Positions 5,547-59,100 of a stretch of DNA of 62,795 nt are shown one piece after another. Numbering within the stretch: the stretch's first letter is position 1; the number at the start of each line of letters is the position of its first letter. This stretch comes from a virus (lineage: Duplodnaviria; Caudoviricetes), in IMG/VR virus record IMGVR_UViG_3300025151_000035, positions 1-62,795 of that record. One strand, given 5' to 3'. A model generated the notes under the pieces. The model saw nothing but the letters and a program-made list of their open reading frames with translations, ran no database searches and had not been told where the DNA came from. A program made the position numbers and the translations under genes.

Positions 5547-8500
5547 TTAAGCTGTGTAACAGGTAATATCTACATCACCTTCATTATTATCAGGACTTAT
5601 TCTATTCTTGTCAAGCATCTCATTCCTAGGGATACGAATAGTATCTGTCATATTTACAAAAGTACGACTTCCTGTTACAGGAATACTGACTGACTGCATT
5701 GAGTTAGCTGCTCCCCCTGATCTATCTGCTTTAAAGTTTCTATAGAAATACTTCTGAACTTTAGGTAAAGGTAGTCCTGCTTTTCTAGCAGCCTTTCTAG
5801 CCTGCAATGACTCCTTTGTTATCTTGTATGTAAATGGATATAGTTTCTGAGAGAAGCTATTGTCTTTAGGTACTATCTGCCTATCATTATGGTTATCCAT
5901 AAAGAACTTATCAAAGTAAGAGCCTTCTATATTAAGTTGGCTACTGCCATTTAAATAAGAATCCAAATAATCTTCCATATACTCTAATACAAAATCACCA
6001 GGGATGGTATTTAGGAAAGATACCGGTGATGATCCTACACCACTTTGCAGTAATGCTGTCTGCACAAATGCTCTTGCAAGATCAGGGTCTGTAGCTCTAA
6101 TGTCATTGAACCCATCAAAGATAGTTCGCATTTCATAAGAGGTCATAGTTCTACTTACAGGTTGTAGGTAATCATTTGTTCTATCCTGCCCCTCTCTTGA
6201 AGCTGATAGTACAGGAACAAGAGATAGTATAAATGGGTTATCTCTCAAAGGATGATCTCCTTTAGGATCCTGAATCTTCTGAAGCCTGTTTGCCATAGAG
6301 TCATCCCCAAACATAAGTGTCTCTATGTTATTACCTAAAGGTATCATACCTTCTTTATATGCATTCTGTAATATGAATGATATAAATCCATCTTCAAACT
6401 TAGATAGGATACGTGCTCTATCATCTACAGACAGTCCCTTGATTTTAGGGTTTGTAAATATTTTCTGCACTCTTCTAAAGTCATCTCTGTATTGCTCTCC
6501 TGCCTTTTCTGTCAAGAACATTTCATTGAAAACTGTCTGCATACTGAAATTGTATGAGGTCATAGCTTTCATAAAGTTTGCTGGTTCTGACTCATCTGTC
6601 TCACTCAGTTCTTCTGCAGCTACAGATCCTGGAATGTTCATCCCAGATATTCTTTCTACGTTTTCAAACAGGTCAGTACTTACAGCGCTCTCGTACATGT
6701 CAAGTACCACTCTTAGATGGTTTCTATTCTTAGGTACTTTAGTATCAAAGGATTGTGCTGTTACAATATTACCTAAGTCATCTCCTATCTTACTGTACAC
6801 CATCATATCTGTTAAGATTTGAAGCTGTTCAAACTTCTGCTTCTCTGTAAGGTCATTTACATCTTGAGCTACAGTCTCAGCTAGAATATCTGAATTAAAT
6901 GCACGTACTCCAGATTCTGTTTCTGGTACTTTATAACTAGTAGCGTACTTCTTTCTAAGAGATTTTGCTATTTCTTCCTCATACTCACTCTTCTCCATAA
7001 CCTTCATAGTCCTACTTCTTCCTACTTCAAGCTTACTTAAGTAGTCTTTAACTATAGGTTGGTTAGCAAACATTGCTATAGTCTCCATATCTACTCCAGC
7101 TCTAATAAGGAACATCCACATGTTCGCATTATCTGGATTGATATTAAGTATATGAAGTATAGGGGTATTAACTACATCTACAGATGCGTTTACAAGCTGA
7201 CTTATAGCATCAGATATACGCATAGTATTGTTGATGTTCATAGTTCTACCTAGAGAGTATGATTCTGCTAAAGGATCAAATCCTTCAAAGTTCAATCTTA
7301 CTTTTGCAAGTCTCCCCGGTAACTGTATAGACATGTCCTTAGCATTAAGTCTAAGGCCTGCCATCTGTCCCTTAATGTTGTGAGTAGATGCAAGTGCAGC
7401 TATACCTACTAATGTTTTACCCTTATTGAATGCTTCAGACACTTTAATAAGATAAGGTATATCTGTATTTAAGTTGTAATCAGTTATACCTGAAAGGTCA
7501 GGAAGTTTATCAGTCCCTTTATAAAGGTCTGTAATTTTTTCAGCAACGTTCTCAGCATCAGAAGTATTTACCGGCTGCATCCAGGTATCAAACCTTTCTT
7601 GCTTTGCTTCTTCATTAGTTACACCTTTAGCTTGTAATAAGGCTATCATATCCTCCATTACAGCATTCTGCATAGCTCCTCTACTTTGTACATTATATAC
7701 AGTAGCTTCTGGGTTATCCTTCTTCCAGTCTTCAAAAGGTTGTTTACCTACACTCTTTGCAAAGTTGTATACAAGGGCTTGTGTAAGAGAGTCTCCTTTA
7801 AGTTGCTCTAACTCTTCAGGGGTAACTCTATCCTGTGCATTGTACCATTCTTCTAGGGTAGGGTAAAACTTTTCTTTTACAAGTCTATTCCCTACTTTTT
7901 TATAGGATGGAAAATACAATACAAGTTTGTCAATATCAAAGTCAGATCCTGATTTAGTAACCATCTCAGATGGAATTACCACTGTAGGACCGGCACTCCT
8001 AGGTAAGAATCCTTTTACTTTGATAGCCTCAATAGAGTGTATACCATCTGTAGGAATACGTATACCTATCATTTCTACAAGGTCAAGTCCTCCTATAAGT
8101 TCTCCATCGGCAAATATTCCTTCTTGAGTAATAACTACATCTTTATCTACCATCTCTTTGAAGTGATGTGGTAGATATACTTCCATGTACTGATCACCTA
8201 CAGTGTAAGGCTTAAGCTCTTTTAATCTTACTCCTGGAACATCCTCTATTTTGGCAGTCTCAAATCCAAGAGAAGATTGCTGTACATACATGTCCCCATC
8301 AAACTTCTGACGGATAACTCTTTTACCTGCAAGGCTCCATAGTACTCCTTCTAGCCTTCCTTTGTTAGAAACAGCATCAAAGTACATAGGCTTTTTAGCA
8401 TCATTTCTCTCTTGAAGTTTATCCAAAGACGCCATAAGCTGCATAGGCATTTGCCTTCTAATGCTCTCATCTTTAATAGCTTCTAAAAACTTGCTATAGT

Positions 8501-11500
8501 CTTGATTCTTTACAGTATAGGTTCTTATACCCTGATCATCTATAGATTCTTCAAGGTTAAGTTCATCTAATAGCTCTTTGTATCCTCTGTCTATAAGTGC
8601 ATTCAGAACTTCGTTATATCTTTCTACAGTAGGAGCAAGCTCTCTGAACTCTTCTCTTAGCTGTCCATCTTCAAATAGGTCAGAAAGTACTTGTACCCTA
8701 GCCTGTGTAGCAAGAGGTGACTTACCTTTAAACTTAGATGGCACTTCTAACTGTGTACCCATAAAGGTGTAATCTATATTTACTTTCTGTCCTTCAGAGA
8801 ATGATGCTGTAAGATCTTCTGAACTACGGATAACATCTCCGTCCATAAGTTGTAGCTGTCCTGCATCTCCGGGTACACCGATCTTAAATGCAGATGGAAG
8901 TATAAGTCCACCTAATTTATTAGATGTAAGGAAATCATACATATTAAGGATGCCTGGGAATGTCTCATTTCCCATCTTGGCCAAACCTGGATAGATAGGT
9001 GCAGCAGACATTTTAAAGAATCCTGGCACCTGTGTATCTACATTACCATTAGGTAAGTATCCGAAGTATTGGAACTTAAGAGGTGGGAATTTACCGTACT
9101 CTTCTTCAGTAAGAACATCTCCACGCATAGCATTTTCATACGCTCTTTCCTGCTCTACACTCCAAGTATTGCCTCGTATAGCCATTTCTCTATACGATGG
9201 TAAAGTAAGTAATAGTGTACCGTCTGCTTTGTCTGCAGCTCTTCTATATGCTGCTGCTATCTCCGGAGATAAAGTCTCTAAGTATTCGTTGTAGTATGGA
9301 GTAACTCTTTGCGGCTCCTGTATAACTGCAAGGTCCTCTGTACCATCAGACTTTCTACCGTCGTACTTAGCTCTAGCATTTTCAGATTCATTAAGCCACT
9401 TATCAAGTTGAGGATCTACACTGAATATATCCTTTACACCTGCAGCACCCTTAATCCTCTTAAATAATGCTTTATAGAATGCAGGGTCTCCAAAGAATAC
9501 TTTAAAGGTTTCATTCTTATAGACTGTTTGCTTAGTAATTACCTCTTCTAAGAATGCATCTAACTGCTCTGAGTTTATGTTATCAGGGAGTTCTTTTGAA
9601 AAGTGCTCTCTATTAAGTCCTAATACCTGATAAGTACCGTCCTCATTGTCATGAATAACCTTAAGGTCTAACATGTAATCTTTAAGAGTGCGCATATTCA
9701 CTCTAAGATTAGCATCTATAGATTCAAAGATCTGATCAGAATTTTCATTTACAAACTTCTGTACATCTATACGCCCTGCTTTAGGATCGTTCATGATCTC
9801 TGTCATACGGTCTATTATAGACGTATCTACTTTAGACATCAAAGACTCGAACATTCTTAGTGAGCCTAGTCCTGGACGATTGATCCTCTCTGTAAAATAA
9901 TCTACATCTATACCTTCTTTCCTTCCTTTGTTTACAGCCATTATCTCATCCATAAGATAGCCTAAGAAAGCTTCTTTTGCAGAGTCAATGGTTTTAAAAT
10001 CTTGTATAGGGAACCTTATAGCAAAGTTTGTAGATATGTCTGCAGCCTGTAGCAAAGGCATAATGCCTTGCATAATAGATTCTACATAACTTACAAGATT
10101 ATCTGTAGGTCTAAGTTTAGAAGTCTTAACTCCTGTCTCTCCTACACCTTCAATTGTAAGTCCCTCTCTAATGATTATATCTATATTCTTATTCTCATTC
10201 TCTTGCAATGCTTTTAGTGTAAGCGATGAGAATGCATAAGGATTCTTAGATAGATTTTTTGGAGAGGAGTAATATACCCCTCTTAACTTATCCATTCCAG
10301 TATTTGCTATAGTGGTCAGGTAGTTATTCAGGGAGATACTGTATACTATTTTACCTTCAGGATTCTGATGCTGAAACTCATAGTCCATCTTAGTGGTTTC
10401 AAGTTCCAGTTTGGCTAAAGCGTTCATTCTTGTAACACTCTGAGCTTCCTCCCTGTCAAATAGTGCCGCTAAGTTTGTAGTACCTTTAATAAGGTCTCCA
10501 TACACAAATGCAAGACCGTCCTCTAAAACCTCTTTATAGGTCATTTCAGAGTTCTTAAGAGTACGTTCCGGATCTATTTCTAGTATCTCTTCCAGCTTTT
10601 CTCTGTTAGAGAATGTGATACCTATGTGCTCAAGTGCGTCCAGCTTCATACCGTATCCTTTAAGAATTACCTTATCACGTATTTCTTCAAGGGTCAGTTT
10701 TTCTCTATTGAAGTTTGCTTTTGCTTTATTGTCAAATACAATACTGCCTTCTGGACTCATAGTCATATGAGCACTGGTCTTCTCTTTACTTCGTAAGAAC
10801 GAGTCCCACCTTGCACGGATACTCTTTAAGTTTCTTTCAAGGCTAGGATCTATATTTCCTATTCTTCCATTCTCCTGCAGTATAGTATACTGCGTATCAT
10901 ACATAGTTTTTGCAAACTGACTACGTACTGCAGTATGGAGTAATACAGTTTCTATAGCTGTACCTCCATCCATCTCATAATCTCCTAGTCTTTCAAGTAC
11001 TTGTGGTGCCCACTCATAATCTTCAGAAATACCATCTATAATTTCAAGTTGCGTCTCAAAATCAAGTGTACCTTCTAAGTTTGTCTGCAAAGTTTTAAGA
11101 ACTGTTTTAAGTTCATACACTCCTCGTAGACCGGTAGAGTTTGTCTCTCCTGTATTAATAGGAATTGTACCAAGAAGAAGTTTTACTATGCCTTTTGCAG
11201 AATCTGTAGGGGACATTTCCATCCTATCAGATACATCTGCAAACATTCTACTTGATACCTCATCTTCATCTCTTGTATCTTCTATCTCAAAGTCAAGCCC
11301 TAACTCTGATAAGAATTGTTTATGAAGCTGTACGGCCTCTAATCTTTTTTGACGTCCTCCTGCTTCATCTCCGTATAGATACTTTAAGGTTGCTAGAGTC
11401 TGAGCCTGCTCTTCAGATCCTTCTTTTGCGCTATTGTACTTTGCAAGAAGATCATTATACATATTGGTCCAGGCATTGAAGTATGCCATACGTATCTGAG

Positions 11501-14500
11501 CATCTCTTTCTCCTGTAGATAGGTCTAAGAAATCTTCAAACTTTACAGATATTTCCTGCTGTTCTCCGGCTTCGTTTGTAAATGTTCCTCCTTGAAGTGC
11601 ATCTGCAAAGTAAGCTGTAAGTGTAGAGTTAAGGTCTGCTGTAAATCGAGCTGTAGTTTCTCCAGCTAACTTAGCTGACATCATTACATCATCTGCAACA
11701 TCTAAATTCTCTACAGTTCTTTGAGCATTTTTAAAACCTCCCCTCTCAATCTTTGCAAAAAGTTCCTCAACACCTTGAAGATCAAAATCTGTATCCAAAG
11801 CTTTATCCAGTTTGAACATAGCTCTGAATGTGTTCCTGATAAAGTTGAAAAGCTTTTTAAAGAAGTTTTCTTCTCTAGGTGTAACTGTGTCTTTACCTAT
11901 CTTATACTTTCCTTTTGAAAGTGCATACCTTCTAAACTCTTCTGCAAGCCACTCCTCTGTCTCCTTATCCGTAAACTCTGAAAGAGGTTTTGATTTAGGC
12001 TTATAAGATCTGTCTTGCTCTCCTTTAGCTATCTCTTGATAAGGTACCGCTTTACCTTTAAGGTTTCGTACAATATCATATATCTTATTTCTATCTTCTT
12101 TTGATAGCATTGTAAGAGATACATCGTGGAAAGCCTCATGGTATAGTGCCCCACCTGGTGCAAGGTTGGATACTAAGATCTTACCATCTCTTCTAAGCAT
12201 GGCATAACCTTCTCCACTCATACCTTTAACCATACCTATAACAGGTATTATTTCAGCAGAGGTCATTCCTTTTACTCGAGCTAACTCTTCTGCAAACTCC
12301 TCTTTTATATAGTCATCTGAGGCAAGCTCATAAGAACTTGAAAGAAAGTTTTCTTCTTCCCCAGGCTTAGGAGCTTCAAACGTATTAGAATCAGGAGAAG
12401 CATCTGTATCAGAGCTAGAGTTTAACCACTCTTCTACGTAACCTTTAACTTCATCTGTAAGATTTCCTTCTTTGTAAAGTTCTTCAAGACGTTTACCTGA
12501 AGCATTCTTATCATCAAGGTATTCAAATACAAGATCTTTAGATGCCATATTTAATGCATCATCTATCTGAGCTTGTTGAGCTTTTGCAGCTTCATCCTTT
12601 ATAGCTTGATCAGCTTTTTCTTCTGGGGATAGTTCTTGATCAGCCCGTTCTCTAGCATTATTCATAACATCCTCCATGGTTTGACCCTGATCTGGATCAG
12701 GCGGTGTTGGAGGCTGTGGAGTAAATCCTTGTTCTTTCAAAGTCTGTAAAGCAGCTCGTGCTCCTGCTTCTGCAGCATCTGCTAATTCTTGCTCCCTTTT
12801 AGTTTTAAAAGTAGTTTTAACTGCAGGCGCTTTAGCTCTTCTCCCCGCTAAAGACTCTCTTCTTTTTTCTGAAGGATCAAATTTGATATATCCACCTAAA
12901 GCTCTAGGAGCATCTAGAGGTCTAAAGTTTACAGTCTTACCATCTCTTGTCTCTTTCATAAAGATAGGAGTAGCTCTTGTCATTAATGGTGACTGCCCTA
13001 TATCTCTATCTCTTAATAAGTACTCGTTATAGTTTCTCCAAGAGACGTTTGTTTTATCTTCATCTACGCCTAAATTTTCATCAAGTACAAGCTCTACCCA
13101 TCCATCGGTTGCTGTACCGAGGCTACCTTTATTTACGTTATGGTATTTTGTAGATAAGAAGTCAGTAAATGCTTTAACTACTTCAGTACCTTCTTCAAAA
13201 TCCTTAAGTTCAATTGTTTGCTCATCAGCTCCAAATACTAAAGATCCTTTATTGTGGTATAGTTGAAAATCTACATTATCCTTTTCCTTCTTAGAAGATT
13301 GGAAGTATATAAGATCTTCAATTGCTTTTTTAAGATTAACCTTTTTACCTTCTACTTCTATAGTAAAGGCTTGAAGGTTTTTCATTGCAGCTTTATAAGC
13401 TTCAGGAGTTTTTTTCTTTTTCTCTTCAGCTATAAACTCTTCACGTTTCTTCAAAAACAGATGTAATAAGCGAGATGCGTTTACAACTTCTTCTTCAGAA
13501 AGGGTTCTTCCCACCATAGGAATAGGCATCTGCCTTGCAGTATCCTGTGCCCATACAAGTCCCGGTCTAGTAGCAACAGTAGTTTTACCTATAGGTAGGC
13601 CTATTGTGCTAGTAAGTCCTTCATTAGATGATCCTATATATAAAGGAACTTTGCTGTATTCGTTTTTACCGTTAAGCTTTCCACTGTTCTGCTCAGGTTC
13701 TTTATTAAGAATAAGCTCCCCAATAGATTTTTCTTTGATAGGGTATAGGAATATCTCTTGATTTTCTTTAGCCTGATCAATAATCTCATTTCTCCAAGAC
13801 TCATGTGCTGCTCGAATATCTTCTCTCTCAGAGTCTTCTAGATTATAATCATTTCTAAACCTCTCCCTACCATCTATGTCTAGTGTAGGAAGCATAGAGT
13901 TAGCAAAGACCAATCCTTTACCTTGCTCATCTTCTACAGTTACAAACTCATTTACGTTTTCAAACTCAGTTTTACCTGTCTTCTTATTATAGGTGCTTTT
14001 TTGATTTTGAAATACTACGAGTTTAATCTCAGAGCTAGGAAGACCCTGCTCTATTTCTTCTGGAGTTCTATAGAAATCTTCTACAGTAAGCATATCCCCT
14101 AACTCTTCTGGGATATTGTTTACAGTTATTGCAGCTACAGAGTGGCTGTAGTAAGTCTTTTTAGTTGTCTTACTGTGATTAACTGCAAGCTTAACAGAGT
14201 CTTTCCAGTTATGGAATCTTAAAACAGATATAGCGTGAGCAAGTCTTCTTTGCTCATCCTCTGTAGGATTGTCTACATCCTTAAGTTCTTTGTAAGTATC
14301 AAGCGCTCCTTCTTTTATACCCTTACTCAGATCCTTTTTATGGTTGGTTACAGTTTTAGAGTACCCGGTATCTTTAATATCAGGCTTCCTTAAAACTTGT
14401 ACTCCTTCTTTAGAGTTAGATGCATCTTCAAAAGAGTAATCATAGTCTTTACTTGGCTTTGTAGGAGAGGATGTATCTTTCTCCACGCCTGTCATAGAAT

Positions 14501-17500
14501 CTATCTTTGCGAATGTGTACAATCGCATATAAGAATCATCTAGCACTGTAGCCGCAGTAGACAAAGCTTTACTTTCAACAGATTCTTTTTCAAATATCTG
14601 TCTATTTCCTCTTTCTTTTAGAGCGTCTATAGCCTCCTGTGTGATCTTAAGCTCTCTGTTTAGAAACTCCCGATCCTTTAAAATCGCATCTTTATTCTGT
14701 TCATACCATTCAGGTATTTCTTCTAAGTTCAGTTCACTAAGTGCAAGATCAGAGGAAAGGTCATAATCTATGTTATCATAGAATAACTTACTTAAAAGGT
14801 TTCTCTTCTTATATAATTCAGCTAAGGCTGCTTTAACTTCTTCTGTAGCAGCATCCATAGCTTTAAAGTGCTCCGTATGGTAGTCTTTAATGCCTTTAAT
14901 TTCCCGCATCATCTCTAGACTGAAAGCAGAAAGGTCATCTTCAATACCCAGTGTAGCCATCATCTGTTCTACACTGCCATGCATTTCTGCTGCGTAAGTG
15001 TCTAGATTAGGGGGTGTTTCTTCAAACTCTTCTATTATAGCTAAAGACTCTAAAAGACTGTCTCTATCCTTAGCAATATCCTGTAAGATGGTCTCACCCT
15101 CTGCAATAGTTCTTTCAATATTATTGATAAGATCTAAAGCGTCTTTATTGGACATGAACTGTCCATTCTTTTTACGTATCCTTTGTCCGGCTTCAAGCTT
15201 ATCTACAAGTTCTGCAAGGTCTCCTAAGTAAGAATCTATAAGAGCCTGTGTTTCCTCTGCCTGCCTTTCAAAGCCTTCAATCTGTCTAAGCGTAACCTTT
15301 TTAGCTTCTGCAATCTTAGACTTGAAATTCTCAATACGTTCTTTTTCTTTTTTCTCTCTTCTCTTTTTAGCAGCCTTCTCCGCCTCTGTAAGATCAGTAT
15401 CCATTGCATTGATCTTCTCCTGAATACTTTGGATAGCCTGTGGACGATATGTAGGATCCATAAGCTGCTTGTACATCTCTACAGCTTTTTGTCTTCTAGC
15501 TCTAAGTTTTCTAAGATCTATAAGATAGGTCTGTACCTGGTCTCCATTTACAGCTACTCCATCTGGATCTGATTCAAACCAAGGCTTTATAATCTCTTCA
15601 AACTCTTGTCCAGAAAGTTTATTGTCTTCACCCACTTCTTTTGCAAGCTCAGATAGCTCAAGCTTTCTATCATACAATTCTTTAAGCTGCTCTTTAACTT
15701 CATCAGTTTGCTCTCCCATTTCAAGAGCATTTATGATAGTTTCCATTTCAGCTATAGCAGCTCTTATAGGTGCGTCTTCATAAAATGCACCTATATCTAC
15801 ACTTCTAGTATTGCCTTCTGCATCAGTGTAATCTATAGTAGATGTTCTATCTTCTCTTTCAGCTTTACCCTCTTTATCTACAGACCATGCAGTACTGGAT
15901 ACTTTACCTCCTGTAAGTCTAGCTACTTCTTTTATTAGAGCTTCTTCTCTCTCTTGAACATTATCCATTACAGATAAGCTATGGATAAGCTGCTTACGCA
16001 AATACCCCATAGAGCCTACTTTTTCTGACTCAAGTACCTTTTGCTTATCATCAAGTCTAAGATGCTCATCAACTTTTTCTACAGCTTCTTTTATCTTAGC
16101 AGCTCTTTTTCTAGTAGCCTCTACTACTTCAGACTTACGAGTATTTATTTCTGCAGACGGTAAGCTTTCTTCTGTATACCCTCCAAGTTCTCTGAACTCT
16201 GCCTCTGACATTTCAAGAATGTCCTGAGTTTGAGATTCGATATCCTCGTATTGACCTGTCATGATCTTAGCCATGACAAAATCAAAGAAATTATCATGCT
16301 CAAGATCTTTTACCAATGAAAGATCACCTCCTTCATAAGCACTATCTAAAAGCTCACTTCGTTTAGCTACGTTCATGAAAAAACTTCCATGTTGGCGTAG
16401 AGAGTTCATAACCTCCGGGTGATCTTTTTGAAGCTGTTCAAGTTTATTTATATACTCTCTTCTAAATTTAGTGTCCTTATATGCTTCTACAGCGGTCATA
16501 TTAACACCAGGTACACCTAGTCCACCTAGCATAGCACCTATAACGACTTCTTTAAGTCCTTCTGTAGTAGTGTAAGACTGTTCTGCACCGTACATAAAAG
16601 AGTCATATACAGAGTCGAATAGGTCATTCATACCTGCATCTTCTCTGATACCGGATAGAAGAGCGTAGTCTGCAGAAGCTCTACCCATTGCTCCTTGAAG
16701 ACCTTCTTCTACAAATCCTTCGTATCCTGCAGTTCCTAAAGTAGATCCTACTACTCTAGCTGCATCTCCTATCTTTTTACCGCTTTCGGTACGTGCTGCA
16801 TCTCCTACCTTCTTAGCAAGTCTACCTGCAGCAGTATCACTGAGGTATTCTTTAGCAGCATTTTTAATGGTCTTTTGAGTTTGCCCTGCGTACTTTAAAG
16901 TACTGTTTACACCAGGCAGATTTCGTATTATATCTTTTGCTCCCTGACCATAAAGCTTAGGTATCATAAGCATGTTACTCATACCTACTAAAGCAAAGTT
17001 ACCTGCAAATACACCGTTAGATATAGTAGTAGACTCGTTCTCTATCTTTTGTCTTTCGTCTGTAGTAAGAGCTTCAAGCTTTTCATCTTCAGACATTACA
17101 GACCAGTCCAGTCCCTTATTTTCTAAAGCTACTTTAACAAGGTTTTCTTTTATAGTGTCGTAAGAATGTCTGGCTTCTACACCTGACTCATAACTTGCAC
17201 CGGTTGCCAGCTGTCGAATGAGCCTACTTCCTTGAAGTATATCTTTTCTATTCATAAACTCTGCACCTCTACCGATAACTCCTTCTATTCTATTTGCTCT
17301 AGAAGAGTTTTTAAGGAGTCTTGTAGCTTGCTGCATACGAGCAAATGTTGCTCCTAGTGTAGCACTTCCTACACCTGCTGTAAGCATTTCGGTCAGTACA
17401 GCTCCTGCTACGAAGCTCATACCGTTCATTACCTGGTCAGACCAGAAGTTTGCAGTACCCATCTGGTCCCACAATCCTTTATTTCTTTCTTGTACTGTAT

Positions 17501-17984
17501 AATGGTTAGGTAGAGTTTCATCCATATACTTATTGATGTCGTCTATACCTCTTGCAAACTCATTATTATAGAACGAGTTAAACTCACCATCTCTAATACC
17601 TGAGTAGATTCCATACCCTAGACCTATAGTACTACCTACAACGTTAGTAAGGGTTTTACCTCCGAACTTTAATAGACCGTTACCCCACTTATCTGCAACT
17701 GTTTGAGTGTATCCTCTAAACTCTTGTAGATTTTGAGCTTGTTCAATATTAGCAACTTCAAAATCTTGCTTATACTTTCCAAACTCTGGATCTATATATT
17801 CACCTACAGCTTGTACTTCAGCAGTTGGAGTAGCCTCTTGTATAAGACCTAAAGCACTTACACCTGAAGAAATAGCATCTATTTCTGCTTGGAGCTCTTC
17901 TTGACTAAGTGATGGTACTATAGGGTCAGTTTCAGGAGTTAGATCAGTTTCTAACCCTTCTACGATTTCATCTTCTTCATCCAT
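5547..17984 (-). CDS. giant virion-packaged DNA-dependent RNA polymerase (crAss-like vRNAP) with zincin-like domain
   Basis: 4145 aa; RIPTDGIHSI...GSDFDIDKL catalytic motif (about 7923-8060) typical of crAss-like two-barrel RNAPs; LYHEAFH...EEWLAEEF zincin motif (about 11935-12145); Gly-rich hydrophobic N-terminal part. Confidence 0.92.
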   Translation of the reverse strand: MDEEDEIVEGLETDLTPETDPIVPSLSQEELQAEIDAISSGVSALGLIQEATPTAEVQAVGEYIDPEFGKYKQDFEVANIEQAQNLQEFRGYTQTVADKWGNGLLKFGGKTLTNVVGSTIGLGYGIYSGIRDGEFNSFYNNEFARGIDDINKYMDETLPNHYTVQERNKGLWDQMGTANFWSDQVMNGMSFVAGAVLTEMLTAGVGSATLGATFARMQQATRLLKNSSRANRIEGVIGRGAEFMNRKDILQGSRLIRQLATGASYESGVEARHSYDTIKENLVKVALENKGLDWSVMSEDEKLEALTTDERQKIENESTTISNGVFAGNFALVGMSNMLMIPKLYGQGAKDIIRNLPGVNSTLKYAGQTQKTIKNAAKEYLSDTAAGRLAKKVGDAARTESGKKIGDAARVVGSTLGTAGYEGFVEEGLQGAMGRASADYALLSGIREDAGMNDLFDSVYDSFMYGAEQSYTTTEGLKEVVIGAMLGGLGVPGVNMTAVEAYKDTKFRREYINKLEQLQKDHPEVMNSLRQHGSFFMNVAKRSELLDSAYEGGDLSLVKDLEHDNFFDFVMAKIMTGQYEDIESQTQDILEMSEAEFRELGGYTEESLPSAEINTRKSEVVEATRKRAAKIKEAVEKVDEHLRLDDKQKVLESEKVGSMGYLRKQLIHSLSVMDNVQEREEALIKEVARLTGGKVSSTAWSVDKEGKAEREDRTSTIDYTDAEGNTRSVDIGAFYEDAPIRAAIAEMETIINALEMGEQTDEVKEQLKELYDRKLELSELAKEVGEDNKLSGQEFEEIIKPWFESDPDGVAVNGDQVQTYLIDLRKLRARRQKAVEMYKQLMDPTYRPQAIQSIQEKINAMDTDLTEAEKAAKKRREKKEKERIENFKSKIAEAKKVTLRQIEGFERQAEETQALIDSYLGDLAELVDKLEAGQRIRKKNGQFMSNKDALDLINNIERTIAEGETILQDIAKDRDSLLESLAIIEEFEETPPNLDTYAAEMHGSVEQMMATLGIEDDLSAFSLEMMREIKGIKDYHTEHFKAMDAATEEVKAALAELYKKRNLLSKLFYDNIDYDLSSDLALSELNLEEIPEWYEQNKDAILKDREFLNRELKITQEAIDALKERGNRQIFEKESVESKALSTAATVLDDSYMRLYTFAKIDSMTGVEKDTSSPTKPSKDYDYSFEDASNSKEGVQVLRKPDIKDTGYSKTVTNHKKDLSKGIKEGALDTYKELKDVDNPTEDEQRRLAHAISVLRFHNWKDSVKLAVNHSKTTKKTYYSHSVAAITVNNIPEELGDMLTVEDFYRTPEEIEQGLPSSEIKLVVFQNQKSTYNKKTGKTEFENVNEFVTVEDEQGKGLVFANSMLPTLDIDGRERFRNDYNLEDSEREDIRAAHESWRNEIIDQAKENQEIFLYPIKEKSIGELILNKEPEQNSGKLNGKNEYSKVPLYIGSSNEGLTSTIGLPIGKTTVATRPGLVWAQDTARQMPIPMVGRTLSEEEVVNASRLLHLFLKKREEFIAEEKKKKTPEAYKAAMKNLQAFTIEVEGKKVNLKKAIEDLIYFQSSKKEKDNVDFQLYHNKGSLVFGADEQTIELKDFEEGTEVVKAFTDFLSTKYHNVNKGSLGTATDGWVELVLDENLGVDEDKTNVSWRNYNEYLLRDRDIGQSPLMTRATPIFMKETRDGKTVNFRPLDAPRALGGYIKFDPSEKRRESLAGRRAKAPAVKTTFKTKREQELADAAEAGARAALQTLKEQGFTPQPPTPPDPDQGQTMEDVMNNARERADQELSPEEKADQAIKDEAAKAQQAQIDDALNMASKDLVFEYLDDKNASGKRLEELYKEGNLTDEVKGYVEEWLNSSSDTDASPDSNTFEAPKPGEEENFLSSSYELASDDYIKEEFAEELARVKGMTSAEIIPVIGMVKGMSGEGYAMLRRDGKILVSNLAPGGALYHEAFHDVSLTMLSKEDRNKIYDIVRNLKGKAVPYQEIAKGEQDRSYKPKSKPLSEFTDKETEEWLAEEFRRYALSKGKYKIGKDTVTPREENFFKKLFNFIRNTFRAMFKLDKALDTDFDLQGVEELFAKIERGGFKNAQRTVENLDVADDVMMSAKLAGETTARFTADLNSTLTAYFADALQGGTFTNEAGEQQEISVKFEDFLDLSTGERDAQIRMAYFNAWTNMYNDLLAKYNSAKEGSEEQAQTLATLKYLYGDEAGGRQKRLEAVQLHKQFLSELGLDFEIEDTRDEDEVSSRMFADVSDRMEMSPTDSAKGIVKLLLGTIPINTGETNSTGLRGVYELKTVLKTLQTNLEGTLDFETQLEIIDGISEDYEWAPQVLERLGDYEMDGGTAIETVLLHTAVRSQFAKTMYDTQYTILQENGRIGNIDPSLERNLKSIRARWDSFLRSKEKTSAHMTMSPEGSIVFDNKAKANFNREKLTLEEIRDKVILKGYGMKLDALEHIGITFSNREKLEEILEIDPERTLKNSEMTYKEVLEDGLAFVYGDLIKGTTNLAALFDREEAQSVTRMNALAKLELETTKMDYEFQHQNPEGKIVYSISLNNYLTTIANTGMDKLRGVYYSSPKNLSKNPYAFSSLTLKALQENENKNIDIIIREGLTIEGVGETGVKTSKLRPTDNLVSYVESIMQGIMPLLQAADISTNFAIRFPIQDFKTIDSAKEAFLGYLMDEIMAVNKGRKEGIDVDYFTERINRPGLGSLRMFESLMSKVDTSIIDRMTEIMNDPKAGRIDVQKFVNENSDQIFESIDANLRVNMRTLKDYMLDLKVIHDNEDGTYQVLGLNREHFSKELPDNINSEQLDAFLEEVITKQTVYKNETFKVFFGDPAFYKALFKRIKGAAGVKDIFSVDPQLDKWLNESENARAKYDGRKSDGTEDLAVIQEPQRVTPYYNEYLETLSPEIAAAYRRAADKADGTLLLTLPSYREMAIRGNTWSVEQERAYENAMRGDVLTEEEYGKFPPLKFQYFGYLPNGNVDTQVPGFFKMSAAPIYPGLAKMGNETFPGILNMYDFLTSNKLGGLILPSAFKIGVPGDAGQLQLMDGDVIRSSEDLTASFSEGQKVNIDYTFMGTQLEVPSKFKGKSPLATQARVQVLSDLFEDGQLREEFRELAPTVERYNEVLNALIDRGYKELLDELNLEESIDDQGIRTYTVKNQDYSKFLEAIKDESIRRQMPMQLMASLDKLQERNDAKKPMYFDAVSNKGRLEGVLWSLAGKRVIRQKFDGDMYVQQSSLGFETAKIEDVPGVRLKELKPYTVGDQYMEVYLPHHFKEMVDKDVVITQEGIFADGELIGGLDLVEMIGIRIPTDGIHSIEAIKVKGFLPRSAGPTVVIPSEMVTKSGSDFDIDKLVLYFPSYKKVGNRLVKEKFYPTLEEWYNAQDRVTPEELEQLKGDSLTQALVYNFAKSVGKQPFEDWKKDNPEATVYNVQSRGAMQNAVMEDMIALLQAKGVTNEEAKQERFDTWMQPVNTSDAENVAEKITDLYKGTDKLPDLSGITDYNLNTDIPYLIKVSEAFNKGKTLVGIAALASTHNIKGQMAGLRLNAKDMSIQLPGRLAKVRLNFEGFDPLAESYSLGRTMNINNTMRISDAISQLVNASVDVVNTPILHILNINPDNANMWMFLIRAGVDMETIAMFANQPIVKDYLSKLEVGRSRTMKVMEKSEYEEEIAKSLRKKYATSYKVPETESGVRAFNSDILAETVAQDVNDLTEKQKFEQLQILTDMMVYSKIGDDLGNIVTAQSFDTKVPKNRNHLRVVLDMYESAVSTDLFENVERISGMNIPGSVAAEELSETDESEPANFMKAMTSYNFSMQTVFNEMFLTEKAGEQYRDDFRRVQKIFTNPKIKGLSVDDRARILSKFEDGFISFILQNAYKEGMIPLGNNIETLMFGDDSMANRLQKIQDPKGDHPLRDNPFILSLVPVLSASREGQDRTNDYLQPVSRTMTSYEMRTIFDGFNDIRATDPDLARAFVQTALLQSGVGSSPVSFLNTIPGDFVLEYMEDYLDSYLNGSSQLNIEGSYFDKFFMDNHNDRQIVPKDNSFSQKLYPFTYKITKESLQARKAARKAGLPLPKVQKYFYRNFKADRSGGAANSMQSVSIPVTGSRTFVNMTDTIRIPRNEMLDKNRISPDNNEGDVDITCYTA

Positions 17985-56675: not shown

Positions 56676-57929
56676 TTATGTTGTTACTGTCCACCCTTTA
56701 TTGGTGGCGATTAATAAGTCAGCGGCAGTAAGGTCTCCTACACCTGGATTATTAGTAATAGTTATAGTGGCTGAAGCCGTACCAAGGTCGTTGAACACTT
56801 GAACTAATGCTTCTCTACTCATATTGCAGTTGGTAAGATCAAATGAGACTGTTAGACCTGTTATTCTCAACCACTCTAGGCTACGACAATCTTGGAATGC
56901 TCCTGTGGTATTAGTTACCCCTGAACCATCTATTGTTTCAACTCTTCCAAGAACATAATCGTTACGGAACATCCTGTAAATACTTAATGGTGCGGTGCTT
57001 GCCTCCCTAAAATATGCTTGCTTTAGATTAGTACAAGATTGAAATGCTTGCGAAAATCCACTTGCATTATCAATGCTATCCCATCTTGTAGGATTTGCAG
57101 ATGTTCCAACTGTAATTAAAGAGGAGCATGATTCCAGAATACTAAGCGGATACTTTACTCCTTTGAATAGATTTTCTGCGGCAGTCCCCGTAATTGTTCG
57201 GATTCTAGATGACTTTAGTGCTTGCGTACTTGTTGTAATTCCTGACGTTGGCGTTTGTAATTCGGATATGTCGATATCACCAGCCAATCCAAACATTTGT
57301 TGCCAGTTAGTTATATCTTCAAAATTCCCCTTGATCTTACAAAATTCGTCACAGTTATAGAAGGCATAAGTTGCAGTTGTTACATTACAAGTACCCACCC
57401 ACTCAAACTCTTCAAGTGATTTGTGAAATGACTTACTTGTTGTCCCCCTGAAACAATTATTCAAACTTGTAATTGTCTGAGAGGTTATCTTAACCGATAA
57501 TGTAGGTTGAAGGAATCCACCGTTAGCGTCAGCGTGAGTCCGATACATATCAAACCCTGTAAGAGTACCAGTTTCAGGAGTTATCTTAGTGATAACCTGC
57601 TTGTAACCAAACTCAGAGACCTCACCTGTTCCTTTGCTATAATCAAGGTCAAAATCTGCTTGCGCTGCTGATGAATGGTTGGTAACAGTTGTACCATCAT
57701 TATACAGGTCTACAGTATAGTTCCCTGACGATACGGTAGCATAGACGGACATAAAGTTCGGTCTGTCATCTCCATACACTTGAGATAGGATGTATATTAC
57801 ATCATCACCATCTGAAGTAGACGGGAGGTCAAGCCAATCTGGGTTACGTACCCATGCTCTAGAAGTACATGTACCTCCACCACCACCTGAACCTCCTCTT
57901 GGTCCTGTTAATCCTACACCTATAGCCAT
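56676..57929 (-). CDS. BspA/DUF285-like repeat (solenoid) protein, candidate receptor-binding or accessory fibre
   Basis: About 417 aa from MAIGVG; repeated (A/M)F..C..L units; ends IATNKGWTV as in phage LRR-like fibre proteins. Confidence 0.65.
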   Translation of the reverse strand: MAIGVGLTGPRGGSGGGGGTCTSRAWVRNPDWLDLPSTSDGDDVIYILSQVYGDDRPNFMSVYATVSSGNYTVDLYNDGTTVTNHSSAAQADFDLDYSKGTGEVSEFGYKQVITKITPETGTLTGFDMYRTHADANGGFLQPTLSVKITSQTITSLNNCFRGTTSKSFHKSLEEFEWVGTCNVTTATYAFYNCDEFCKIKGNFEDITNWQQMFGLAGDIDISELQTPTSGITTSTQALKSSRIRTITGTAAENLFKGVKYPLSILESCSSLITVGTSANPTRWDSIDNASGFSQAFQSCTNLKQAYFREASTAPLSIYRMFRNDYVLGRVETIDGSGVTNTTGAFQDCRSLEWLRITGLTVSFDLTNCNMSREALVQVFNDLGTASATITITNNPGVGDLTAADLLIATNKGWTVTT

Positions 57930-57931
57930 GA

Positions 57932-58249
57932 TTACAGCATATAGATTATACAATCACCACTAGCCATGGTAATAGCTGTGATCTGTGACCCTTTAGGTAC
58001 CGGTAAGTACGCTCCTGCCTTTACAGTTATTCCTGATAGTCCATAATCAGAAAGCTTTGCTACGCCATTAACAAGGAATTTTGTAAACACTGTATCCGTG
58101 TTAGCTACGATAGCGTAACCTGTCAATGAAGTATGATCTCCTGTACCCGTAAGCATTTTAAAACCTCCTGTCCCTGTAATACTCTTAAGATCTTCAGAGT
58201 TTATAGAGGTTGTCCTTAAATATTGTTCTGATGGTGTTGATGCTGCCAT
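57932..58249 (-). CDS. small beta-rich structural-like protein, first gene of the late operon
   Basis: 105 aa from ATG 58249 (the TTG at 58270 lies within the promoter element). Confidence 0.65.
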   Translation of the reverse strand: MAASTPSEQYLRTTSINSEDLKSITGTGGFKMLTGTGDHTSLTGYAIVANTDTVFTKFLVNGVAKLSDYGLSGITVKAGAYLPVPKGSQITAITMASGDCIIYML

Positions 58250-58267
58250 TTTAATTAAGTCTTTGTT

Positions 58268-58275
58268 CAAAGATA
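58268..58275 (-). promoter_or_regulatory. Bacteroidota sigma-70 -7 element (TATCTTTG)
   Basis: Exact TAnnTTTG match followed by an A-rich leader with no SD sequence, then ATG 58249. Confidence 0.6.
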
Positions 58276-58284
58276 TAAAAAGTC

Positions 58285-58555
58285 CCTTGAGAGTTTTACC
58301 TCTCTAACTCTTTCAATCGGGATTTAGACCTGACCAGTGCTTCCTTTCGGATACCTAGGGTTGACTTTCTTGGTGTTACTTCACCTACACTTACCTATGT
58401 GTTGCCTTATGGCAGTCAACCCAAATCGGGCCCTATATTCCGTCTCTTCTGTATCCTATCGGAGAAAACTCCACCTCTATTTAAGGCTACAATCCGACTT
58501 CTGACCCCTTACTGCTCTTTCGATCCTCTTGGGTGATCACTTTCGTGGGATACGG
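58285..58555 (-). ncRNA. candidate ~270-nt structured non-coding RNA
   Basis: No ORF of 60 aa or more; minus-strand GAAA-capped hairpins (CACGAAAGTG, TCCGAAAGGA); long-range stems GGGTTGAC/GTCAACCC and GTATCC/GGATAC; promoter element immediately upstream. Confidence 0.55.
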
Positions 58556-58558
58556 TTA

Positions 58559-58566
58559 CAAAATTA
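58559..58566 (-). promoter_or_regulatory. Bacteroidota sigma-70 -7 element (TAATTTTG) with an upstream TTTG
   Basis: Exact TAnnTTTG match; a TTTG lies about 22 nt upstream. Confidence 0.6.
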
Positions 58567-58716
58567 GTATAAAAAATTCTCAATACACCAAAAAAATTTT
58601 TGAAGTGGGAAAATTTGTGTGAGGGGTGACCTACTTAAAGAACACCCCGGTACATTATTGGAGTTTAAAACCTCCGGTCATAAACAAATAATTATTTAAC
58701 CTAACATTAAAACGAA

Positions 58717-58941
58717 ATGGATATTACGTTTGAACGTTTCCTAGCGGATCATGGCATGATTAAAGTAACCATCGAAGCTGGTTTAATCAAGAAACAATTG
58801 ACTCTTGGTCTTAGTAAGAAAGGGCAAGCCCTTGTTACAGACCTCGAGAAAGACACATTGATAGATCCTAAAGCTCATAAAGAGCTTTATGAACTATTAA
58901 AACCTCTACTTGACAAGCATGCCAAGGTAGAGATTTGGTAA
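58717..58941 (+). CDS. hypothetical early protein
   Basis: 74 aa; A-rich leader; followed by a terminator. Confidence 0.7.
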   Translation: MDITFERFLADHGMIKVTIEAGLIKKQLTLGLSKKGQALVTDLEKDTLIDPKAHKELYELLKPLLDKHAKVEIW

Positions 58942-58972
58942 AGAATAGGGGACTTTGTCCCCTTTCTTTTTT
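58942..58972 (+). terminator. intrinsic terminator
   Basis: AGGGGAC-TTT-GTCCCCT followed by TTCTTTTTT. Confidence 0.75.
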
Positions 58973-59100
58973 ATTATGTGTGTGTCTATAACAAATAGCG
59001 CAACAGAAGTGAGTGAGTGTGGCTACCAGACCGCATTCACCACTTTTTACCACTTTTCCTTATGTGTTATCATAACACATATTGTAATAACTATAACATT

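Follow-up and report, generated by a model that had tools for sequence, protein, structure and literature searches.

The HK022 put RNAs and the Bacillus EAR element are cis-acting, promoter-proximal RNAs of processive antitermination with no dedicated phage protein partner known. In the lambda late leader, 6S RNA is made from pR', ends at the strong intrinsic terminator tR', and is read through with Q. The phi29 pRNA is a phage-encoded structured packaging RNA. Few large RNAs combine an invariant core with several covarying domains, and those that do have mostly proved to be ribozymes, riboswitches, or ribonucleoprotein parts. Bacteroidota phages include the crAss-like phages, which dominate gut and marine viromes. 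GOLLD and ROOL, both Rfam families, are large ornate RNAs of phages and prophages (cryo-EM paper, PMC12286853). The hth-associated ncRNA is abundant in Flavobacteria and relatives, where it lies same-strand upstream of operons (Hoffmann et al., bioRxiv 10.1101/2025.06.10.658865). In phi14:2, a marine crAss-like phage of Cellulophaga, middle and late genes are transcribed by the host RNA polymerase, and long intergenic non-coding RNAs are highly transcribed in the early region g004-g006 (10.1101/2020.03.07.982082).

In this study, we analyzed a structured RNA encoded on the minus strand of a 62,795-nt stretch of Caudoviricetes DNA (referred to here as the window). Like put and EAR, it is a folded, promoter-proximal RNA that heads a long same-strand operon with no phage partner evident. 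However, it is 3-5 times larger and more elaborate, with three domains and a conserved 3' motif; no relation to them is seen in sequence or structure, and some of its copies have no operon behind them. As in the lambda late leader, a non-coding stretch separates the late promoter from the first late gene, but neither an intrinsic terminator nor a Q-like protein was found. It is a phage-encoded structured RNA like phi29 pRNA, and in two architectural types (B and C) of the RNA family described below it is found just upstream of terminase genes; its size, fold, and phage group are different, it also occurs in non-phage islands, and it has no Rfam match. It shares with GOLLD and ROOL the character of a large, highly structured RNA on phages and mobile DNA, whereas it is smaller (225-480 nt), belongs to another host phylum, and keeps a fixed operon-head place, again without an Rfam match. 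The same-strand position upstream of operons resembles that of the hth-associated ncRNA, and an HTH_17 gene precedes one of the island copies. By description, the hth-associated loci are susCD, two-component, and rpoE-dcas12f loci, whereas the present RNA is found at phage late operons and in integrase/restriction islands. phi14:2 is comparable as a marine crAss-like phage with highly transcribed intergenic RNAs, but those RNAs belong to the early region and ours to the late-operon head. The family models CM R2 and R3 matched nowhere in the 100-kb phi14:2 genome, including a CDS-free 1.7 kb.

The RNA-coding segment runs from window position 58553 to 58272 on the minus strand (282 nt). An earlier sequence-only reading of this DNA had proposed an ORF-free, relatively GC-rich segment heading the late operon. 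The ORF scan agreed, since no minus-strand ORF of at least 30 aa was found in 58271-58716, and the plus strand of this interval held just two GTG ORFs of 55 and 45 aa. The GC content of the RNA segment was 0.45-0.46 compared to 0.33-0.41 in most flanking 200-nt windows. The first ORF of the operon (57932-58249, minus strand) encodes 105 aa without a family. It is followed on the same strand by genes for a holin, an amidase, the terminase (TerL), the portal, and the capsid (major head protein), down to position 617. The RNA is the first element of this 58-kb lysis, packaging, and structural operon, as had been claimed. Across the intergenic region lies a divergent ORF of 74 aa (58717-58941, plus strand), which has no family in PHROGs, Pfam, or Atlas.

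The minus strand folded with a minimum free energy of -84.7 kcal/mol (z = -3.22), which none of 100 shuffled sequences equalled, as the sequence-only reading would have it. For the plus strand the z-score was -1.87, and 4/100 shuffles were as good. All of the sequence features named in that reading were found on the minus strand: the GAAA hairpins CAC-GAAA-GUG (58538-58547) and UCC-GAAA-GGA (58342-58351), GUAUCC at 58548-58553 and 58349-58354 with GGAUAC at 58451-58456, the GAGAG/CUCUC pairing (58300-58304/58289-58293), and an 8-bp stem (GGGUUGAC 58415-58422 / GUCAACCC 58358-58365) with three hairpins inside it (58404-58413, 58387-58402, and 58372-58385). The pairing is conserved in relatives. 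In the 5' domain, 22/28 pairs covary, and 92.0% of pairs were formed compared to 69.6% in shuffled controls (0/500 reached the observed value; slid controls, 29-50%). In the full 80-pair fold of the window clade, 37/80 pairs covary, with 95.4% paired compared to 88.6% (0/500; slid controls, 32-48%). CM-based alignments were used here, as MAFFT alignments of diverse members (A6 and A7) were too poor in the 5' half. Invariant G-U pairs would read C-A on the opposite strand, and the indels and substitutions of relatives concentrate in loops. These results show that the region encodes a genuine folded RNA and that the fold is strand specific. The earlier proposal of a structured minus-strand RNA starting at the promoter element 58559-58566 is supported.

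The conserved 5' domain (58451-58553, minus strand, 103 nt) comprises helices P1-P5, is common to every family member, and is small enough for biochemistry. P1 is formed by GUAUCC (58548-58553) and its partner GGAUAC (58451-58456), with changes on both sides at 6/6 pairs family-wide; many different P1 sequences begin directly 3' of CUCCGAUA. P2 is the hairpin CAC-GAAA-GUG (58538-58547), in which 3/3 pairs covary and the loop is GAAA or GCAA among close relatives. P3 (58504-58534) contains a conserved internal loop, GAGG / AGUA, and an inner hairpin, UC-GAAA-GA (58516-58523). All six pairs of P3a covary, and the inner hairpin is swapped for ACC-GUAA(U)-GGU in L021-type relatives and in one metatranscriptome contig. 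The invariant family core (58458-58498) consists of P4 (GUCGGA 58493-58498 / UCCGAU 58458-58463) around the UUGUAG loop, P5, and GGAGUUUUC. The P5 hairpin (58473-58487) covaries in 5/5 pairs, and P4 reads AUCGGU/ACCGGU in a copy found by CM in the island G299. The family core can be written as GUCGGAUUGUAG...GAGUUUUCUCCGAUAG, and the core used in the membership test, CAGAAGUCGGAUUGUAG ... GAGUUUUCUCCGAUAG, is closed by P1; its identity in the 49 sequences of the family is built in, since the search pattern itself fixed the core. The invariant loops of the family are UUGUAG and GAGUUUUC.

The central domain (58318-58442, minus strand) was modelled with RNAalifold. It has outer helices at 58440-58442/58318-58320 and 58425-58433/58326-58334, a 9-bp stem (58414-58422/58358-58366) around the three hairpins (58372-58413), and a hairpin carrying UCC-GAAA-GGA (58335-58357). 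Among 26 distinct rows, 7/8 pairs of helix 8, 5/9 pairs of helix 9, and one pair in each of the three hairpins covary. Covariation thus backs two elements of the earlier proposal, the GNRA hairpin P2 and the stem that closes three hairpins. The CACA..UGUG and CCUG..CAGG hairpins reappear in copies from metagenome-assembled genomes (MAGs). A terminal hairpin, AGAGAG-GUAAAA-CUCUC (58289-58305), follows, and 5/5 of its pairs covary in the type A clade. The conserved 3' motif, AAGGGAC-UUUU-UAUAUC (58272-58288), ends 22 nt before the first start codon. Its family form is [A/U]RGGGR, 3-7 nt, and URUR[U/C], located 100-270 nt after the 5' domain, and the window copy carries it as AAGGGACUUUUUAUAU at 58273-58288. 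The motif was present in 18/24 representative members compared to 0.75 expected from mononucleotide shuffles, for a pattern chosen post hoc. As a repeated late promoter the motif was rejected, because it is not enriched in the window (5 seen, 3.26 expected). By eye, the 3' GGGGA can pair with UUUUCUCC over 4-9 bp; both sides are invariant, so covariation is uninformative.

A candidate host-type promoter lies at 58559-58592 on the minus strand, with a -33 TTTG (58589-58592) and a -7 element TAATTTTG (58559-58566) ending 5 nt before P1. We take it to be of the Bacteroidota primary sigma type, on the consensus in the Bacteroides promoter literature. The -7 box and the spacing are identical in all type A/A' relatives, and TAnnTTTG is also found 4-8 nt before P1 in members of other types (L027, L024, L078, and L053). 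In the window, neither TAnnTTTG (56 seen, 60.8 expected) nor the full -33/-7 pattern (2 seen, 2.09 expected) is enriched. Conservation and the fixed place just before P1 in relatives support this upstream site as a candidate promoter. The sequence-only reading had bracketed the RNA with two TAnnTTTG elements. Both are present, and the upstream one is conserved, but the downstream element, TATCTTTG (58268-58275, minus strand), which overlaps the 3' motif and occurs in the window and L002, is lost in other relatives. Its site reads TATCTTAG in L003 and L021 and TATCTTCG in L019, with TTAG or TTCG in place of TTTG. In this particular phage, TATCTTTG could be a promoter.

The same reading had placed a final GAGAG/CUCUC hairpin before a U-tract. 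The hairpin stood up, with its five covarying pairs, but the U-run begins 7 nt past it, other bases occupy this place in other family types, and no terminator-like site was called at 58270-58310. A switch between two GUAUCC partners of GGAUAC had also been suggested. P1 retains 6/6 pairs in 26/27 rows, and the alternative GUAUCC site forms only 4-5 pairs in five rows with changed P1 and is absent from five further full-length rows. The second partner is not maintained where P1 changes, which argues against the switch.

Relatives were collected from a 20-nt core in viral contigs, metagenomes, and three Bacteroidota MAGs, and 49 distinct sequences of several architectural types were found, with RNA lengths of roughly 225-480 nt. 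An invariant core marks their 5' domain, the central domain varies, and the 3' motif is conserved. The carriers are phages of Bacteroidota, crAss-like and others, and a few integrative bacterial islands. CM R2 and R3 matched 48/48 member sources and 0/6 non-member sources. The window copy has all five helices P1-P5 and reaches 120.7 bits under R2 and 348 bits under R1, the latter model having been built from the window. The three MAG copies retain the structure, with 12/46 predicted pairs compensatory, and one genome carries two diverged copies. Other routes gave little. Against 50,697 GenBank phage records, blastn of 58200-58720 and of the 5' domain returned nothing or chance matches with E of at least 1. 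A first 17-mer probe found only two close relatives and three chance loci, the latter without a CM match. When relatives were sought by the first ORF, 5/7 loci (L004-L008) had coding sequence upstream, and the RNA was nowhere in their records. G007 was dropped as a close RNA-less relative, as it shares no capsid, portal, or terminase genes with the window. The variation among 49 distinct sequences of several types is enough for structure determination and mutational design.

The first downstream ORF of at least 60 aa was on the same strand in 26/30 loci with at least 1200 nt available, and the first upstream ORF was divergent in 27/32 loci; the locus rows are not independent and represent no fewer than 12 distinct first genes. 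These genes are unrelated and encode, among others, proteins of 105 aa, 120 aa, and 316 aa, acidic proteins of 61-66 aa, and an 84-aa lipoprotein-like protein. TerS and TerL follow closely on the RNA in types B and C. In G163, a 50-kb record, a 15-kb structural operon begins with it, as does a leftward operon in the G299 island. At blastp E 1e-4, no protein was common to the window, G163, and G011. In four bacterial copies (L091, L093, L094, and the metagenome copy L067), the downstream gene is convergent or absent. Island copies adjoin integrase or excisionase genes in integrase/restriction islands, and copies at the edges of integrase-bearing islands hint at traffic between phages and satellite-like elements. 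The small divergent ORFs belong to no family, and the small ORFs directly upstream of the MAG copies look spurious, one HTH_17 gene excepted. One family copy lies about 100 nt past a tRNA gene, a trait in common with GOLLD and ROOL. Taken together, we are highly confident that this is a real structured RNA family found at operon heads.

The sequence-only reading had called for a cmscan against Rfam, and no known family matched. With Rfam 15 (4227 models) the whole window gave no match at the gathering score, 58272-58553 gave none with E up to 10, and the RNA in eight loci with other family members gave none with E up to 1. The models covered include riboswitches, ribozymes, 6S, SRP, RNase P, tmRNA, GOLLD, ROOL, and HEARO, and the phi29 pRNA is also among them. 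The packaging-RNA, sponge, and ribozyme roles suggested in the sequence-only reading are no more than guesses. Resemblances to a 16S segment, conserved regions of RNase P, J2/3 of the purine riboswitch, and SRP domain IV (UCC-GAAA-GGA-AGCA) were discarded, being either not kept in relatives or without Rfam support. A guide RNA of the TnpB, IscB, or dCas12f type was also rejected, because no such protein is near and the sequence after the scaffold is semi-conserved and not guide-like. A literature search on large or structured RNAs of Bacteroidetes and on crAss-like and Cellulophaga phages found the RNA nowhere described. The family is absent from Rfam and undescribed in the literature searched, and its contexts differ from those described for the hth-associated ncRNA.

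Its exact place in many unrelated phages, after the late promoter and ahead of the first late gene, makes the RNA a concrete candidate for the control by which Bacteroidota phages time and sustain, with the host polymerase, the transcription of very long late operons. We tentatively favor a co-transcribed operon-head leader that would act in cis via a host factor, probably on transcription elongation. The RNA would be a late-operon leader made by the host RNA polymerase, and the conserved 5' domain would bind a host component; a host partner is proposed because distant carriers share no phage protein. Its cis action, aimed either at the polymerase during transcription or at termination, would let the long operon be read through, by processive antitermination or an anti-Rho effect like HK022 put or the Bacillus EAR element. 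As expected for an antitermination RNA, it is located between a promoter and a long same-strand operon (58 kb here and 15 kb in G163), and neither a canonical terminator nor a second, conserved promoter separates it from the first ORF. A purely cis role leaves the four bacterial copies without a same-strand gene unexplained. Mimicry of boxA was also considered. In the rrn leaders of five Bacteroidota genomes boxA reads GUUCAUUGAAAGAUU or GAUCUUUGAAAGAUU, and AUUGAAAGAgUUAG at 58303-58316 of the window shares with one rrn leader a 9-nt identity and four more nucleotides after a 1-nt gap, but it lacks the conserved UC; chance alone would give about one 9-mer identity per leader, so the likeness is within chance.

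A wider claim, that Bacteroidota phages and islands reprogramme the host RNA polymerase with a new class of large cis-acting RNA, is a tentative reading. In such a class, the late transcript would begin with ~280 nt that fold into the three-domain structure and stay on the elongating enzyme or block Rho/Nus-dependent termination. The polymerase might thereby be carried through tens of kilobases of late genes without a phage-encoded antiterminator. Just as compatible with the evidence are a new large ribozyme and a Bacteroidota counterpart of the RNA-only assemblies formed by GOLLD and ROOL.

Nearly as likely as the cis leader, and likewise a tentative reading, is a stable ncRNA released to act in trans. 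It would have its own promoter, end near 58272 or be cut from the leader, and serve as a scaffold, a host-protein sponge, or an RNA-only assembly similar to the large ornate RNAs of phages; its operon-head place would then serve just strong, timed expression. The bacterial copies that keep the fold without a same-strand downstream gene are consistent with this, as are the two diverged copies in one genome, the large multi-domain architecture with invariant internal loops, the absence of a conserved phage-encoded partner, and the abundant long non-coding RNAs of phi14:2 (10.1101/2020.03.07.982082). RNA libraries were examined as assembled contigs from four runs, nine listed runs holding small shares only. 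In one library, a 166-nt contig matching the 5' core only (58487-58537) had a depth of 72.5 compared to 10 for the first-ORF contig, but it comes from another variant, and contig depth cannot rank expression. Contigs from RNA libraries of two studies join the 3' part of the RNA to the first ORF (X1, 57912-58377; X3, 58164-58349); gaps between contigs are uninformative. A further X3 contig (58444-58634 and beyond) extends over the promoter into the DNA upstream, which fits DNA carry-over. The stand-alone transcript of the sequence-only reading was not borne out, since the RNA has no canonical terminator, the second promoter is unconserved, and library contigs bridge into the first ORF. No conserved processing signal was found either, and the operon-head place is kept over at least 12 gene contexts, which is needless for a purely trans-acting RNA.

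A self-processing RNA of a new ribozyme class is unlikely. It would cleave at or near the 3' motif, detach from the operon mRNA, and so set the 5' end of that mRNA. The core with invariant unpaired nucleotides and the 3' motif at a fixed place before the first ORF would suit it, and related phages carry small ribozyme-like elements, such as a twister-P1-like Rfam match of 54.5 bits located about 730 nt from the RNA in G163. However, the Rfam ribozymes give no match to the RNA, and the library contigs bridge the 3' motif, although contigs drop rare or cleaved forms.

We consider a riboswitch-like sensor slightly less probable still. Here a small molecule would be the ligand of the 5' domain, with late-operon expression set by the 3' part. 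A multi-helix junction of about 100 nt with conserved junction and internal-loop bases and covarying stems, followed by more variable sequence, has this appearance. But the downstream genes are unrelated among types and form no coherent class, the bacterial copies have nothing to regulate, and no Rfam riboswitch matches. Neither a terminator nor a helix sequestering the start site was seen, the only proposed alternative pairing is unconserved, and the 3' domains are themselves conserved folds.

Structured transcripts prime replication as hybrids with DNA at ColE1 (RNA II) and at the T4 origins. By analogy, the G-rich 3' motif and AT-rich DNA might form a persistent hybrid that starts phage or island replication, which we regard as very improbable. 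The turn of the cumulative GC skew falls at the divergent junction that holds the RNA, its G-rich motif is followed by T-rich sequence, and it is found in phages and beside island integrase or excisionase genes. The skew turn is uninformative alone because it coincides with the change of coding strand, and across types the RNA has no linked replication gene. Instead of a functional RNA, the region might be a conserved DNA site (regulatory, pac, or cos) or a chance fold; this would fit a regulatory intergenic space that in some types lies just upstream of packaging genes, but it is hardly tenable against strand-specific G-U pairs, indels and substitutions concentrated in loops, and compensatory changes at 22/28 and 37/80 pairs at a level reached by 0/500 shuffles.

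Nearly all large ORFs of the window, a 62.8-kb fragment of a viral record with a CheckV completeness estimate of 73%, are minus-strand ORFs located between 58249 and 617, and include a holin-like gene, an amidase, the large terminase, the portal and the major head protein (PHROGs). Since these ORFs start at 58249 and a plus-strand 74-aa ORF starts at 58717, the RNA under study (58553-58272, minus strand) lies within a 467-nt divergent intergenic region. The RNA region contains no minus-strand ORF of at least 30 aa, and its GC content is 0.45-0.46 versus mostly 0.33-0.41 in the surroundings. Folding of the minus strand gave -84.7 kcal/mol (z = -3.22), which none of 100 dinucleotide shuffles equaled, whereas the plus strand gave z = -1.87 with 4 of 100 shuffles equally good. 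All sequence features listed in the sequence-only reading, which had proposed that a structured RNA heads the late operon, were found on the minus strand where it had placed them. The Rfam 15 search that it had suggested gave no match at gathering score across the whole window and none in the RNA region even with E up to 10. ARAGORN found no tRNA or tmRNA in the window.

A search of viral contigs with the protein of the first ORF gave seven loci. In two of them, L002 and L003 (proteins 90% and 83% identical), the RNA was present upstream at about 97-98% nucleotide identity and was thus conserved more highly than the protein. Differences from the window were mainly in loops (GAAA to GCAA, one-base loop indels, G-C to G-U). 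The other five loci had coding sequence at this position and no RNA copy anywhere in their records. The alignment of the window, L002 and L003 contained no compensatory pairs, because three near-identical sequences are unable to show covariation. Small parts of the window stretch were found in six RNA libraries, and one 166-nt RNA-library contig (four libraries mapped) matched at 58487-58537 alone, with unlike flanks, which led to a conserved core. A search with the 20-mer GGTCAGAAGTCGGATTGTAG gave 8 new viral loci, a gapped core pattern gave one further viral locus, and a stricter gapped pattern gave 52 metagenome stretches and three Bacteroidota MAG contigs (titled Bacteroidetes bacterium, Flavobacterium sp. 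and Spirosoma fluviale). Once duplicates were dropped, the family comprised 49 distinct sequences.

The RNA is a real, conserved and strand-specific fold. The architecture of its 5' domain (58451-58553) is common to all members. The outer helix P1 starts directly after the invariant CUCCGAUA and varies in sequence between types (GUAUCC/GGAUAC, ACUGGU/ACCAGU, GACAA/UUGUC, CGCCC/GGGCG, GACGU/ACGUC, GUCUC/GAGAC, GCUAC/GUAGC). The domain further contains hairpin P2, variable in sequence and length; P3, whose inner hairpin varies and whose internal loop is conserved, one side being GAGG-like and the opposite side AGUA; a CAGAA strand between P3 and P4; P4 (GUCGGA/UCCGAU); a UUGUAG loop between the 5' strand of P4 and P5; the variable hairpin P5, with a loop end that is usually AAAUAG or ACAUAG; and the closing strand GAGUUUUC. 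R2, a covariance model of this domain built on six type A sequences (alignment A8) with a structure hand-written from the alignment, matched 48 of 54 sources, comprising every member supplied; the six without a match were the non-members, namely L004, L008, three chance loci and phage phi14:2 (first 12 kb). In the R2-derived alignment (34 distinct rows), which was itself fitted to the model, standard pairs occupied 92.0% of cells versus 69.6% when shuffled, 22 of 28 pairs changed on both sides versus 16.2, and the covariation score was 0.506 versus 0.140; none of 500 shuffles attained any of these values. When the 3' partners were slid by 1-3 columns, pairing was 29-50%. The invariance of P4 was imposed by the search pattern; the copy in record G299, found by the model alone, had AUCGGU/ACCGGU with all six pairs kept. 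Several invariant pairs are G-U, which the opposite strand would show as C-A, indicating that the structure belongs to the minus-strand transcript.

The full-length model R1, made from the window, L002 and L003, was run on 27 of the 54 sources (the wider clade of the window and L053) and matched all 27. Among 26 distinct rows, 95.4% of cells were paired versus 88.6% when shuffled, and 37 of 80 pairs changed on both sides versus 17.2; 0 of 500 shuffles attained the observed values, and slid controls gave 32-48% pairing. The 8-bp stem noticed from the sequence (9 pairs in the model) had five covarying pairs, its three enclosed hairpins had one each, the helix outside it had 7 of 8, and the terminal hairpin had 5 of 5. 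In distant types the layout was kept and the middle varied, being reduced to a short hairpin in type B (L016); lengths ranged from about 225 nt (G299 copy) to about 480 nt (L086). An A-rich linker with AUAUAR follows P1. The MAG copies and the window have in common two adjacent hairpins, CACA..UGUG and CCUG..CAGG, within a closing helix, and three MAG copies aligned alone showed compensatory changes in 12 of 46 predicted pairs. At the 3' end, a small hairpin is followed by [A/U]RGGGR, 3-7 bases and URUR[U/C]. This pattern, picked after inspection of the data, was present in 18 of 24 representatives versus 0.75 expected, with near variants in the other six. In the window it occupies 58288-58272 (minus strand), 22 nt before the ATG at 58249. 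Elsewhere in the window it was not above chance (5 versus 3.26), so the motif is part of the RNA element and not a general late promoter.

The RNA heads its operon behind a host-type promoter. The -7 box TAATTTTG (58559-58566, minus strand) has a TTTG 22 nt upstream and ends 5 nt before P1. Box and spacing were identical in all type A and A' relatives, and TAnnTTTG was found 4-8 nt before P1 in other types (L027, L024, L078 and L053). Since this motif was not enriched in the window and is no evidence alone, the assignment relies on the fixed position of the box before P1 across relatives. Upstream of the promoter is a hairpin, GGAG-GUUUUAAA-CUCC (58657-58672, minus strand), whose form in L003, GCAG-UUUAAAA-CUGC, is a compensatory change, and, further upstream than the -33 element, the block CUCACACAAAUUUUCCCACUUCAAAAA is kept in types A-C; each of these may be an operator or belong to a tripartite late promoter. 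The second promoter box that had been proposed behind the RNA reads TATCTTAG or TATCTTCG in L003, L021 and L019. The proposed U-tract after the terminal hairpin is a U-run 7 nt away, replaced by other bases in other types, and no terminator-like site was called at the RNA 3' end. The observation of a structured RNA at the late-operon head was confirmed, and its interpretation was upheld in part: with no terminator-like site and an unconserved second box a stand-alone RNA is unsupported, as is a switchable one.

Flanking genes were counted in loci whose flank was 1200 nt or longer, using ORFs of at least 60 aa, with duplicates and re-fetched loci removed and with L090-L094, the longer versions, standing for the MAG loci; G299 was omitted because its P4 is outside the count pattern. 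The first downstream ORF was on the strand of the RNA in 26 of 30 loci and the first upstream ORF was divergent in 27 of 32, in rows that are not independent but hold 12 or more distinct first genes. Behind the RNA of types B and C come a 61-66-aa acidic ORF, the small terminase and, further on, the large terminase. The RNA heads a 15-kb minus-strand block in G163 (a 50-kb record) and a short three-gene operon, divergent from endolysin and portal genes, in G011. No protein was common to the window, G163 and G011 at blastp E 1e-4.

We tentatively favor, at somewhat below an even chance, a co-transcribed leader: the RNA would be transcribed at the start of its operon and would act in cis on operon transcription via a host factor. 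This reading is favored because the RNA position is kept across unrelated operons, because terminators and a conserved second promoter were not found, and because the operons are long; a host factor is suggested by the finding of no conserved phage partners. It also agrees with phi14:2, a related marine crAss-like phage, in which middle and late genes are reported to be transcribed by the host polymerase (10.1101/2020.03.07.982082). In phi14:2 (NC_021806), a 1.7-kb stretch at 2905-4601, from which all former CDS annotations have been removed, matches the region for which that paper describes two abundant long non-coding RNAs; it was unrelated to our family by either covariance model.

Four RNA libraries, each from a different study and labelled as marine, marsh or seawater metagenomes, contributed contigs that aligned to the region at 90-99% identity. 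X5 gave one 175-nt contig (58302-58473); X7 gave one 151-nt contig (58395-58515), which continues with an L021-type hairpin in place of the inner P3 hairpin; X3 gave tiled contigs (58011-58634); and X1 gave one contig (57912-58377) and a deep core-only contig. Two contigs link the first ORF to the 3' motif. All contigs are assemblies and report presence in RNA libraries, not ends, strand or level, and one X3 contig also spanned the promoter and upstream DNA, consistent with DNA carry-over. Transcription of the RNA is therefore likely but not proven.

Copies were rare among the bacterial genomes searched, with strict filters and 26 candidates scored per genome: R2 matched 3 of 151 sampled Bacteroidota genomes, one doubtfully, and the model R3 matched 2 of 151 genomes from the family of G009, one being G009 itself. 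The contexts of the bacterial copies were mobile. A tyrosine integrase lies tail to tail with one of them, which adjoins two methyltransferases and a Bpu10I-type endonuclease; another follows an integrase and an HTH_17 gene, and a third adjoins a ResIII/Mrr helicase. A second copy in the Flavobacterium MAG (L092 about 7768-8945, G009 contig 10) has its 3' part broken by IS3-like ORFs. Its similarity to the paralogue ends about 200 nt past the 5' domain, where two overlapping same-strand ORFs start, which we take from their sequence to resemble an IS3-family transposase; this copy is probably disrupted. The copy in a Bacteroidetes MAG (L081) is about 100 nt after a same-strand tRNA gene (L081:1325-1398, plus strand, 74 bits) and presumably near rimP-nusA, genes that we named by reading the translation. 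The G299 copy heads a leftward operon at the distal end of a roughly 7.5-kb island, which we take, from the translated sequence, to start with a tRNA gene followed by a likely integrase. The RNA tends to be positioned at the borders of integrated elements. In L091, L093 and L094 the next gene after it is convergent. A stable RNA acting in trans, the main rival of the cis-acting leader and in our estimate only a little less probable, better fits bacterial copies in which the fold is kept with nothing behind it. A ribozyme, a riboswitch and a primer RNA are possible readings with little or no support.

By Rfam and literature searches the family is new, and literature searches found no description of the RNA. 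Within the phylum, the nearest analogue in function is, by its description, the 'hth-associated ncRNA' recently reported upstream of Flavobacteria operons (Hoffmann et al., bioRxiv 10.1101/2025.06.10.658865). Sequence comparison strongly supports a new RNA family, with a proposed function. A comparison with rrn-type boxA gave a similarity at chance level: AUUGAAAGAgUUAG (58303-58316) in the RNA is similar to AUUGAAAGAUUAG, the boxA region in a 16S leader from Flavobacteriaceae (L115, from G299), which has UGUAUC further on, in the right order yet within chance by estimate.

Several other features were observed. A twister-P1 ribozyme-like match (L089:2350-2401, plus strand; G163 about 16209-16260; 54.5 bits, gathering 67.2, E 7e-10) is in the divergent operon of the type B phage; its distance to the RNA copy of that phage, which is on the opposite strand, is about 730 nt. 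In the window, the hairpin AGGGGAC-UUU-GUCCCCU (58947-58963), which has T-runs on either strand and resembles a strong terminator in both directions, directly follows the plus-strand 74-aa ORF and probably accounts for a weak MicX match at 58814-58977 (32.5 bits, gathering 75). A 4145-aa ORF (5547-17984, minus strand) has relatives 32% identical in G011 and 50% identical in G162; it falls in the size class of the crAss-like phage virion RNA polymerase, for which it is a candidate by size. Inside the first ORF, two tandem 27-nt copies (58138-58191, 70% alike) correspond to a repeated peptide, ...TGTGG/TGTGD..., of the 105-aa protein.
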